DNA of 4,226 bases from a virus (lineage: Duplodnaviria > Heunggongvirae > Uroviricota > Caudoviricetes): IMG/VR virus record IMGVR_UViG_3300001919_000205; one strand, 5' to 3'. The notes below the pieces were generated by a model. That model was not told the origin of the DNA, did no database searches, and saw only the letters and a program-made list of their open reading frames with translations. The position numbers and the translations under genes were made by a program. The first letter of the stretch is position 1, and every line of letters begins with the position of its first letter. Below, piece by piece: positions 2,785 through 4,226 of the stretch.

Positions 2785-2800
2785 ACTAAAACTATGGATA

Positions 2801-2831
2801 ACCCGTATATGTACGGGTTATTTTTCTTTAT
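2801..2831. terminator. Bidirectional intrinsic terminator between convergent operons
   Basis: Hairpin ACCCGTA (2801-2807) / TACGGGT (2812-2818) with loop TATG, followed on + strand by T-rich tract TATTTTTCTTT (2819-2829). The stop codon of the - strand gene (2818-2820) abuts the stem. Confidence 0.7.
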
Positions 2832-3366
2832 CACTATCTTTTCTTGATTTGAACAATCCACTAACAACGAAACCAACCAAACCAACAATACTAATTGTAC
2901 TTGTACCTAGTAATGCAACGATCGCTTCAACTGGAGGCTTTCCTTCATGTGCAATAAGAAACGATGTAAACATTGCGACAACGAATAAGCACCAACACGA
3001 CATAAACCAAACCGTGAATGAGGCCATTTTTGTCCGAAGCTCATTGTCTATTTCTTTACCAGTTGCGTCAGCTATCTTATCCCGTACTTGTGATTTGAGC
3101 ATATCAAGCTGAGCTTGAAGACTGTCCATTCTGTTCTGCTGCATAAACTCATGCAATGCACCAGTATTAGAACCAAACTCTTCTGCCTCCAGAATAGCTT
3201 TATTTTCTGAAGAAGAATCATCGTCGCTCTCATGATTAGACGGCTCAAATGCAGATTTAAAAACCTGTTCTTGACTGTCAGTAGAGTTTAAGGATGCTTC
3301 AGAGCGACCATTTTCAACACCTGCGGCCGCTCCGATAAGTTTATAAATATCTGAATTGTGAGACAT
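2818..3366 (-). CDS. Putative membrane effector/toxin: acidic N-terminal region, predicted amphipathic helix, C-terminal 2-TM hairpin, 182 aa
   Basis: ORF 2818..3366 (-), ATG at 3366 lying 21 nt downstream of the Panacea gene stop, with AGGGA upstream. Hydrophobic segments SFTVWFMSCWCLFVVAMFTSFLIA and AIVALLGTSTISIVGLVGFVVSGLF separated by HEGKPPVE; basic C-tail KSRKDSDKEK. N-terminus is acidic and Ser-rich (ESDDDSSSENKAILEAEEF) followed by QAQLDMLKSQVRDKIADATGKEIDNELRTK. No recognised family. Confidence 0.75.
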   Translation of the reverse strand: MSHNSDIYKLIGAAAGVENGRSEASLNSTDSQEQVFKSAFEPSNHESDDDSSSENKAILEAEEFGSNTGALHEFMQQNRMDSLQAQLDMLKSQVRDKIADATGKEIDNELRTKMASFTVWFMSCWCLFVVAMFTSFLIAHEGKPPVEAIVALLGTSTISIVGLVGFVVSGLFKSRKDSDKEK

Positions 3367-3387: not shown

Positions 3388-3861
3388 TCAGAGGCCCTGA
3401 CATTGCTGTCGGTTATTCAATAAATCATGATAATAAGCCTTGATCGCATCATTTGAGATGATTGACGAGCCAATACCATTATAAGCTTGTGACCAAGGCG
3501 TACCTGGCATATGAGTTAGAGTTGATAACTCAATTCCATTTTTCGAGCCGTAAAACTTATAAACAGCCCCGATAATGCTCTCTGCTTGCGGATCCATAGT
3601 AACGATGCCACCAAAAGGAGCTACTGCTACATTCGTAACAGGTTTATTCCCATAGTCTTTGAAAGCATCGTACATTCCAGGAATAACTGGACCGTACTTC
3701 CACGCGGAGACACATTCATTGAGCAAAGGCTTACCTGTTAATGCTAAATAGTAACCATGGGCAATATAAGTAAGCTTCTGCAGTTGCATGTGGGTCAGAG
3801 GATTATGATGTTGGTTTCCCAACGTTATGAATTTATTGGCTATTTGTACCGGACTGTACAT
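3388..3861 (-). CDS. Panacea-domain (DUF4065) protein, putative antitoxin/immunity component (PanA-like), 157 aa
   Basis: ORF track 3388..3876; preferred start is ATG at 3861 (MYSPVQIANKF...) preceded by a perfect AGGAGG (complement of 3868-3873) with a 6-nt spacer. The track's ATG at 3876 overlaps that SD. Motifs LTHMQLQKLTYIAHGYYLA...PLLNECVSAWKYGPVIPGMYDAFKDYG match the Panacea/DUF4065 signature (LT..KLQKLLY.AQG...AW..GPV...Y) as I recall it. Confidence 0.8.
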   Translation of the reverse strand: MYSPVQIANKFITLGNQHHNPLTHMQLQKLTYIAHGYYLALTGKPLLNECVSAWKYGPVIPGMYDAFKDYGNKPVTNVAVAPFGGIVTMDPQAESIIGAVYKFYGSKNGIELSTLTHMPGTPWSQAYNGIGSSIISNDAIKAYYHDLLNNRQQCQGL

Positions 3862-3984
3862 AACCACCCTCCTCATTACACTGAATGTGCAAACAGTATC
3901 ATCACTGTTATCTCAACCTAACACGAACAAAAAAGTTTTGGAAGATTGCAAGAGCAATTCACTGTGTTTATAACCAGCAAATGA

Positions 3985-4000
3985 CTGTACATATACACAG
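3985..4000. promoter_or_regulatory. LexA-box-like operator (SOS box) CTGT-N8-ACAG
   Basis: CTGTACATATACACAG at 3985-4000: perfect CTGT / ACAG half-sites with an 8-nt AT-rich spacer (consensus CTGT-(AT)4-ACAG). It lies ~12-27 nt downstream of the predicted - strand TSS. A weaker adjacent match CTGTGTTTATAACCAG sits at 3962-3977. Confidence 0.45.
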
Positions 4001-4018
4001 GTTACAAATTGGTGGCGA

Positions 4019-4046
4019 ATTATACCTGCAGAAGTTGCGATGTCAA
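4019..4046 (-). promoter_or_regulatory. Consensus sigma70 promoter for the - strand Panacea/2-TM operon
   Basis: On the - strand: TTGACA (complement of 4041-4046), 16-nt spacer, TATAAT (complement of 4019-4024). Both hexamers match consensus exactly. Predicted TSS ~4012, giving a ~150-nt leader to the ATG at 3861. Confidence 0.6.
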
Positions 4047-4147
4047 CAAAGCGACCATCACAGTGTTTTGCATCTGACACTGTTATGACAAAAAATCTTT
4101 TGATAGGTTCCCAATAGGCTCCCACAAAACACATAACCAATTGTTTT

Positions 4148-4226
4148 TCAAAAACGATACATCCTATCGAGCATTGGTGCAACGCTAAACCGACCACTCC
4201 AGTGAACGTCAGTTTTTTCAGGCATT
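4148..4226 (-). pseudogene. dusA: Orphaned 5' fragment of host dusA (tRNA-dihydrouridine synthase A) truncated at the prophage att junction
   Basis: Reading the - strand from 4225: ATG CCT GAA AAA ACT GAC GTT CAC TGG AGT GGT CGG TTT AGC GTT GCA CCA ATG CTC GAT = MPEKTDVHWSGRFSVAPMLD, then RMYRF and TGA (4150-4148). The peptide matches the DusA N-terminal region with the Dus-family APM.D motif as I recall it; native DusA continues ...LDWTDRHCRYF. Similarity is lost below ~4165. Confidence 0.55.

Follow-up and report, generated by a model that had tools for sequence, protein, structure and literature searches.

The terminal operon of an Escherichia coli prophage, carried on a 4,226-nt stretch of DNA (IMG/VR record IMGVR_UViG_3300001919_000205, analysed over its whole length and referred to here as the window), is probably repressed by the host LexA protein and released by the SOS response. 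This last transcription unit of the prophage (minus strand, ~4012 to 2800) is a type II toxin-antitoxin operon, panA-panT (panAT), with the antitoxin gene panA first. Its leader carries a consensus sigma70 promoter followed by three LexA-like boxes, and boxes recur in the leaders of diverged homologous modules. An initial annotation made from the window (the first-pass annotation) had proposed that the module is held off by LexA and induced on DNA damage, and the scores of the putative operators, their clustering, their conservation and the boxes of homologous loci all support this proposal in silico.

The panA gene (3388..3861, minus strand) encodes a single-domain Panacea (SocA-like) antitoxin of 157 amino acids (aa), which matched Pfam family PF13274 with E = 6.2e-18 and 66 bits (cut-off 25.7). 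In E. coli strain 19-5, where the window was located within a 41-kb locus (L001), the panA product is RefSeq WP_000287252.1, the same antitoxin accession as the validated PanA(Esc. col.), and in phage PhiR47_1 (from ECOR13) the two genes are annotated PanA and PanT. The panT gene (2818..3366, minus strand) begins 21 nt beyond the panA stop codon in the same orientation. Its product is a 182-aa toxin that is acidic in its N-terminal part and has, by hydropathy, two hydrophobic helices towards the C-terminus (~119-140 and 146-172); a Pfam search with this product returned no credible match. The operon is followed by a two-way terminator hairpin (2796..2823), terminator-like on both strands with 10-12 pairs and then a T run, which closes both panAT and a convergent prtN-like gene. 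The exact PanA and PanT sequences each occurred on at least 1000 contigs of the collection; tblastn searches of plasmids and phages with PanA showed an identity gap between 97% and 37%. A homologous toxin partner (~165-193 aa) is kept in most related loci, the downstream gene being missing or different in L067 and L076.

The validated E. coli PanAT pair comes from E. coli STEC O31 (Kurata et al., 2022, PNAS, PMC8832971). For this pair, growth inhibition by PanT(Esc. col.) and its neutralisation by the cognate PanA were reported, and the toxin halts transcription, translation and replication together, with depolarisation of the membrane and entry of SYTOX Green (PMC8832971). The supplement of that study lists the same antitoxin in an antitoxin-then-toxin arrangement with a 22-nt gap, the label 'noNTD' and toxin cluster T3. 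The window operon agrees with the validated pair in antitoxin accession, gene order, the ~22-nt gap, cluster T3, the acidic N-terminus and the C-terminal transmembrane helices, but the validated locus is labeled 'NotPhage' in the supplement, whereas here a dusA prophage carries the pair as its terminal cargo. The window PanT is linked to the toxin tested in that study (WP_000019185.1) by the antitoxin accession, the arrangement and the cluster, and once expressed it would presumably act on the cell in the same way. Expression in the published work was driven from PBAD and Ptac, and LexA, SOS and the native promoter are mentioned 0 times (PMC8832971).

On the minus strand, positions 4046-4019 read TTGACA-tcgcaacttctgcagg-TATAAT, with the -35 hexamer at 4041..4046 and the -10 hexamer at 4019..4024 separated by a 16-nt spacer, exactly as the first-pass annotation had described. 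The promoter scan found this to be the sole 12/12 match in the window, the seven other promoter-like sites matching at 9/12; it is also the sole perfect match in the 41 kb of L001, and 3 Mb of third-order Markov sequence contained none. The earlier claim of a strong promoter upstream of a cargo operon stands, and the cargo, left anonymous there, is PanA and PanT. From the hexamers, transcription is predicted to start at ~4013-4010. In homologous modules from other loci the -35 counterparts are TTGACT (L055 and L073) and TTGACC (L072), with TATAAT identical in all three and the spacers diverged, and the hexamers are without variation in 12 E. coli leader haplotypes.

Past this promoter, positions 3985-4000 (CTGTACATATACACAG) form an exact CTGT-N8-ACAG, and positions 3962-3977 (CTGTGTTTATAACCAG) match the same motif with one mismatch. 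Counting this 16-mer with one mismatch allowed gave four sites in the window against 1.4 expected, a number matched by 9/200 shuffles; because this count alone was not significant, we adopted a 20-position heterology index (HI) calculated with a matrix built on the 18 LexA boxes of E. coli that PMC3009722 lists. Scored with its flanks, LexA-like box 1 (GACTGTACATATACACAGGT, 3983..4002) has an HI of 9.1 and lies at ~+10 to +30 relative to the predicted start. Box 2 (TGCTGGTTATAAACACAGTG, minus strand, 3960..3979), at ~+33 to +53, has the best score in the window (HI 7.9), and box 3 (TACTGTTTGCACATTCAGTG, minus strand, 3879..3898) has an HI of 9.0 and ends 17 nt before the panA ATG. The tandem formed by boxes 1 and 2, whose centres are 23 bp apart, begins ~10 nt past the predicted start, and box 3 lies ~115 nt downstream of it. 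All three are 20-bp imperfect palindromes with the CTGT-N8-ACAG core and an AT-rich spacer, exact in box 1 and altered to CTGG in one half of box 2 and to TCAG in one half of box 3. The TCAG half-site also occurs in the uvrA box. The CTGG half-site is also found in the ruvA, cho and dinG boxes (PMC3009722). The first-pass annotation had named the first two of these sites, the first as a LexA box near the predicted start, and both are borne out; its list had missed the third, near the ribosome-binding site, and box 2, the one-mismatch site, is the better operator once flanks are scored.

A LexA weight-matrix or heterology-index score had been proposed as a check of the site, and the values of 7.9, 9.0 and 9.1 stand apart from the next best in the window (14.4), with the three best sites all falling within the 244-bp leader (3862-4105). 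On the same matrix, known boxes scored 0.6-12.8 in a leave-one-out analysis, and the scan of L001 recovered both boxes of the neighboring lexA gene, the second of which is outside the matrix and scores 7.76. Further LexA boxes from the literature scored 3.5-10.8. By this matrix of our own, boxes 1-3 thus score like proven operators and are well separated from the background, in which composition-matched third-order Markov sequence has about one site at HI <= 9.1 per 230 kb. Shuffling the leader (38% GC) 20,000 times gave one such site in 35 cases and two or more in none. A genome-contig scan with PanA, which found only relatives at <=44% identity (Bacteroidota and others) without LexA boxes, served as a negative background, and ~100 kb of non-enterobacterial Panacea loci contained no site at HI <= 10.5. 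As a separate observation, the first codons of panA (GTGGTTATGTACAGTC, minus strand, 3852-3867) repeat 14/16 bases of box 1 (3983-3998), which may be a trace of the origin of the box or a coincidence.

Variation in E. coli leaves the putative operators intact. The 12 leader haplotypes (96-100% identical) have 13 variable positions between 4105 and 3862, and all of these (13/13) lie outside the promoter hexamers and the CTGT/ACAG cores. The sole natural variant of box 1 is a G to A change at its position 1, towards the consensus (HI 8.0); a G to A change at position 2 of box 2 (TACTGG) likewise goes towards the consensus (HI 6.2), and box 3 is invariant in these haplotypes. By our own arithmetic the chance of 0 hits in the 60 critical positions is ~0.03, and the conservation signal from E. 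coli is weak when taken alone.

The strongest evidence for the predicted LexA control is the presence of boxes in diverged modules. A protein search with PanA recovered homologues from Klebsiella, Serratia, Providencia and other enterobacterial assemblies (54-76% identity) as well as more distant ones from Vibrio and Aeromonas (43-49%), the intermediate homologues (59-76%) coming from this search together with contig look-ups. LexA boxes were found in the leaders of all sampled modules at 69-76% PanA identity and of one of the two sampled at 61-62% (L073/74 with a box, L075/76 without). In L055 (PanA 75%), TTGACT-16-TATAAT is followed by two abutting boxes (HI 4.86 and 10.5) from 20 nt after the -10, and in L072 (69%), the orthologous dusA prophage end of another species, TTGACC-16-TATAAT is followed by a box of HI 8.28 at 12 nt after the -10, so that box 1 has positional counterparts past the -10 in both (HI 4.86 and 8.28). 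L073 (61%; also L074) has TTGACT-17-TATAAT and a single box of HI 2.68, 23 nt before the ATG. A second type of leader, which is short, has a single box 14 nt before the ATG in L052 and L077 (75-76%; HI 7.27 and 5.27) and 19 nt before it in L056-L058 (72%; HI 3.1-5.5). The position of box 3 is thereby also occupied in L073, L052, L077 and L056-58 and is the most widely conserved box position. A comparison of the window with L055 shows the hexamers, boxes and ribosome-binding region retained in a leader that is otherwise ~60% identical, and across homologues the CTGT/ACAG contact letters are kept while the spacers differ. The surroundings of the homologues vary (genes read as dinI-like in some, invertases and tail-fibre genes in others, or a porin gene on one side and a lipase gene on the other), and host LexA is the sole trans-acting factor common to the boxed loci. 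In Aeromonas (L066/L067) the panA homologue is divergent from a umuD/umuC-like operon whose own strong box (2288-2307, HI 3.9) lies 194 nt upstream of panA; shared LexA control of the two is possible, and this box was not counted as evidence.

The leader contains a further conserved element near panA. The ribosome-binding site GAGGAGGG of panA (3867..3874, minus strand) is conserved in all close homologues, and upstream of it a palindrome or leader hairpin (3892..3909, minus strand) has the arms AACAGT and ACTGTT around GATGAT. This sequence is ~90% conserved between the window and L055, with flanks at ~60%, and was found ~35-45 nt upstream of panA in eight loci (the window, L055, L060, L062, L068, L072, L073 and L075). 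It occurs in LexA-boxed homologues and in those linked to a Q-type antiterminator gene alike, and is absent from the short-leader loci L052, L056-58 and L077. The conserved loop reads GATGAA or GATGAT, and the arms show covariation (ACAGT/ACTGT, CGTGGT/ACCACG, GCGGT/ACCGC, GGCAGT/ACTGTC): in the eight loci 95.8% of cells pair, both-sided changes occur in 4/6 pairs and G-U pairs fall on the sense strand, statistics that are optimistic because the segments were picked by eye. Within the panA leader it may represent an RNA element.

On the reading that we favor, host LexA dimers would occupy the two tandem operators just past the -10 (~+10 to +53), and the third, beside the ribosome-binding site, would probably also be bound. 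The predicted positions of box 1 and box 2 are compatible with blocking of polymerase binding or escape, and bound LexA might block elongation as well, such that a potentially very strong promoter would be kept off in undamaged lysogens. DNA damage would activate RecA and lead to LexA self-cleavage and panAT transcription, which would coincide with inactivation of the prophage's own LexA-family (CI-like) repressor. Host LexA would here stand in place of the antitoxin autoregulation typical of type II systems, because the PanA of this operon lacks a DNA-binding domain; in line with this, Panacea has been described as probably not a transcriptional autoregulator and unlikely to bind DNA (Ernits et al., 2023). 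Long spacing between box and ATG is not exceptional among SOS genes, with 236 nt for tisB and 105 nt for uvrD in Salmonella.

Several points weigh against LexA control of panAT as described here. The transcription start at the locus is a prediction from the hexamers, and the control itself is read from sequence. Boxes 1 and 2 are downstream of this start and not over the hexamers, and box 3, ~115 nt past the start, could be effective only as a roadblock or with an unrecognised second promoter. The scores are moderate (like those of uvrA, dinS and recN-3 on the same matrix), so repression could be leaky, and as our matrix differs from the original one of Lewis et al. (1994), published cut-offs are not directly applicable to these values. 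In addition, the 3' arm of the leader hairpin is the left half of box 3, with 7 nt shared, although even when this arm is kept constant HI <= 9.03 is reached with a probability of 0.003 and the HI 2.68 of L073 with one of ~1e-5. Lastly, boxes are absent from most homologues at <=62% identity (L059-L063, L068 and L075/76, and L064/65 of Vibrio at 49%; Serratia, Providencia and others are also among these), and LexA control would therefore be specific to a clade and not general in the family.

Other explanations of the leader were weighed against these data. A chance origin of the LexA-like sites in AT-rich intergenic sequence, with no regulatory role, would fit the 38% GC of the leader and the insignificant enrichment of the one-mismatch 16-mer (four against 1.4, matched by 9/200 shuffles), but three sites at HI <= 9.1 within 244 bp, where about one per 230 kb is expected and none of 20,000 shuffles had two or more, together with their conservation in E. 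coli and the independent boxes of nine homologous loci (L052, L055-L058, L072-L074 and L077), make this explanation extremely improbable. The CTGT/ACAG palindromes could instead be operators of another protein: a CI-type repressor of the prophage, integrase/Xis (attP arm-type sites) or an autoregulating PanA-PanT complex. They lie <250 bp from the prophage end next to the attP-arm segment, the words ACAGTG/CACTGT recur in the leader, type II toxin-antitoxin operons are usually autoregulated, and the conserved palindrome beside the ribosome-binding site could be an autoregulatory operator. However, the cI-cro operators in the two host prophages are unlike one another and unlike CTGT-N8-ACAG, and no HI match falls in them; an operator for a phage repressor is unlikely, given that prophages with two types of immunity carry the module. 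Arm sites are countered by the location of the boxes in module-specific DNA, outside the segment common to dusA phages, and by their retention in homologous modules distant from att sites. The PanA protein consists of a Panacea domain alone ('noNTD'), and Panacea is thought unlikely to bind DNA (Ernits et al., 2023). The letters conserved across homologues are exactly the LexA contact bases, with varying spacers, and overall we regard operators of another protein as very unlikely.

It is also conceivable that LexA binds at these sites with its main target elsewhere, namely read-through from dusA, a weak second promoter near box 3 or a plus-strand antisense promoter. There is no terminator-like site between the dusA remnant and the module, the most widely kept box position adjoins the ribosome-binding site (box 3 of the window, L052, L056-58, L073 and L077), and the only box of L073 lies there, ~110 nt past a consensus-like promoter. 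The antisense candidate, ATTACA-N16-TATCAT on the plus strand (3875-3902), is a 9/12 match that overlaps box 3, its -10 is a perfect TATAAT in L055, and its RNA would oppose the panA leader. Against such targets, boxes 1 and 2 are exactly where a polymerase at the consensus promoter would extend, a layout kept in L055 and L072, and upstream of box 3 we saw no convincing sense-strand sigma70 -10 by eye and no conserved -10 in five homologues. As for antisense or RNA control, folding of the leader RNA is no more stable than that of shuffled sequences (z = -0.26), and an Rfam search of the leader gave no known small RNA, its single match having E = 0.87. We therefore consider a main LexA target other than the consensus promoter unlikely.

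LexA control of panAT from its consensus promoter would resemble several known systems without being identical to any. In the colicin operons (E1, K and A) a strong promoter carries tandem LexA boxes just downstream of the -10. The panAT operon would share with them the strong sigma70 promoter, two adjacent boxes around the predicted start and a product harmful to the envelope of its producer that is released only on SOS induction; it differs in box centres 23 bp apart, where colicin boxes overlap, in a third, distal box and in a ~150-nt leader, and in that colicins are plasmid bacteriocins with a lysis gene whereas panAT is a prophage toxin-antitoxin pair. The E. coli genes tisB/istR-1, dinQ/agrB, hokE and symE encode SOS-induced type I toxins with RNA antitoxins. 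As in tisB, dinQ, hokE and symE, a LexA box would govern an inner-membrane toxin that depolarises cells after DNA damage, but those systems encode chromosomal peptides of 20-50 aa, whereas panAT has a protein antitoxin co-transcribed ahead of a 182-aa toxin. In dinB-yafNOP a type II toxin-antitoxin pair is part of a LexA-regulated operon, and panAT would likewise place a protein antitoxin/toxin pair under host LexA and not under antitoxin autoregulation only. Unlike yafNO, which uses the dinB promoter and encodes a ribosome-dependent RNase toxin, panAT has a dedicated consensus promoter with multiple boxes. LexA reportedly also controls prophage genes, including Gifsy antirepressors and dinI-like genes and tum of phage 186. 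The panAT operon would similarly be a prophage-borne locus directly repressed by host LexA and firing with SOS, but the Gifsy and 186 genes control induction or modulate RecA whereas panAT is a membrane toxin with its antidote. The istR2/tisB box is among those printed in PMC3009722.

LexA control of panAT would bear on how toxin-antitoxin systems are switched on, above all Panacea systems, whose antitoxin is often without a DNA-binding domain and whose activating cue has been described as unknown (Ernits et al., 2023). In the library searched, no paper was found that connects Panacea or DUF4065 genes with LexA or SOS. If LexA control of panAT is correct, host LexA would be a concrete, testable input for a validated pore-forming PanAT pair, and a membrane toxin with a protein antitoxin would join the E. 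coli SOS regulon in strains with this prophage cargo. Expression of panAT would then be tied to DNA-damaging antibiotics and prophage induction, including that of the Stx-converting phages 1720a-02 and phiSTEC1575-Stx2k, and the operon would be a natural case of host-factor regulation replacing antitoxin autoregulation. Since LexA boxes on the strong promoter of a toxic gene are a familiar form of control, the advance is incremental: the promoter arrangement appears to be a credible addition to the SOS regulon and no new mechanism.

The homologues lacking boxes have an arrangement of their own, as 7/10 unboxed loci (L059-L063 and L075/76) lie directly downstream of a Q-type antiterminator gene, with a terminator between this gene and the module in L060-63. 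In L075 the module is directly upstream of two holin genes and an endolysin gene, and in L062 a holin gene lies ~1.8 kb downstream. Both arrangements, the LexA boxes and the placement behind Q, would express the pair on the lytic switch. One might then view this PanAT clade as a device coupled to prophage induction or lysis, made up of a holin-like pore former and its inhibitor, and not as a stand-by addiction module, a proposal that we consider doubtful. It would involve two interchangeable wirings, one in which the module has an independent consensus promoter with host LexA boxes (E. coli, Klebsiella and relatives) and one directly behind phage Q, in some cases immediately before holin/endolysin genes (Providencia, Serratia and others), and the conserved hairpin with its covarying arms and GAUGAA loop might provide a post-transcriptional control common to both. 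The abortive-infection or superinfection-exclusion role suggested in the first-pass annotation found no support, as PADLOC gave 0 matches for either protein, and no assay of phage protection by this pair was found in PMC8832971 or Ernits et al. (2023).

Neighboring genes of these modules also have LexA-like boxes. Near-consensus boxes (HI 0.27-5.0) lie beside 79-aa genes in L056-L058 (1619-1638 and 3983-4003) and L055 (1584-1603), genes that were tentatively read as dinI-like, and the boxes by such adjoining 79-aa genes in the Klebsiella homologues include ones of HI 0.27 and 1.3. In L052 an 82-aa gene (1-249), whose product by our own reading resembles DinI, is directly upstream of the module. 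The boxed neighbor genes indicate that PanAT modules of this clade tend to sit among SOS-controlled prophage cargo. Within the late region of the L001 prophage, a strong LexA-like box (TACTGTAAAAATAAACAGTG, HI 5.26) at 7483-7502 falls in the first codons of a DNA-methyltransferase gene downstream of Q, and a weaker one (HI 8.57) at 7903-7922 is upstream of a small open reading frame (ORF). A near-consensus box (TACTGTATGTAAAAACAGTA, HI 2.09) lies inside cI of PhiR47_1 (L002, 850-869); the prophage of strain 19-5 has another repressor gene, in which this box is missing.

The window comes from a lambdoid E. coli prophage, of which it forms the dusA-proximal end. It matched E. coli chromosomes at 98.7-100% identity, and in strain 19-5 it corresponds to the right end of a lambdoid prophage inserted in dusA, with early genes of the ymfK/ymfT/ymfL and yfdP/Q/R types, Q, lysis genes and HK97-type head genes; the integration site adjoins zur, dinF and lexA. 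Positions 4166..4226 (minus strand) are a 5' remnant of the host gene dusA (tRNA-dihydrouridine synthase A), annotated in RefSeq as a truncated dusA pseudogene (L001 21377-21481, equal to the window from 4166 onwards), and this remnant is a leftover of prophage integration. The native dusA promoter would point into the panAT module, and the terminator scan of the window found no terminator-like site between the remnant and the module. In 4,306/5,426 E. coli genomes the match to the query was restricted to the dusA end. Next to it lies a prophage-end (attP-arm) segment of ~55 bp (4105..4160) common to other dusA-integrating phages: ~645 E. coli genomes matched at query positions 229-284 only, which is this segment, at 80-90% identity, and mEp460-type phages matched window positions 4106-4225. 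The segment is the outer boundary of the module-specific DNA, and the DNA inside it occurs only with the two terminal genes, in 79 complete E. coli genomes and three phage records. With a displaced dusA 5' fragment and an attP arm at the end of the window, panAT is the outermost cargo of a dusA-integrating prophage. Elsewhere in the window, an N run (1464-1535; an assembly gap or mask) breaks an ea22-like ORF (1005-1903), at whose position in L001 RefSeq has a single 810-bp gene.

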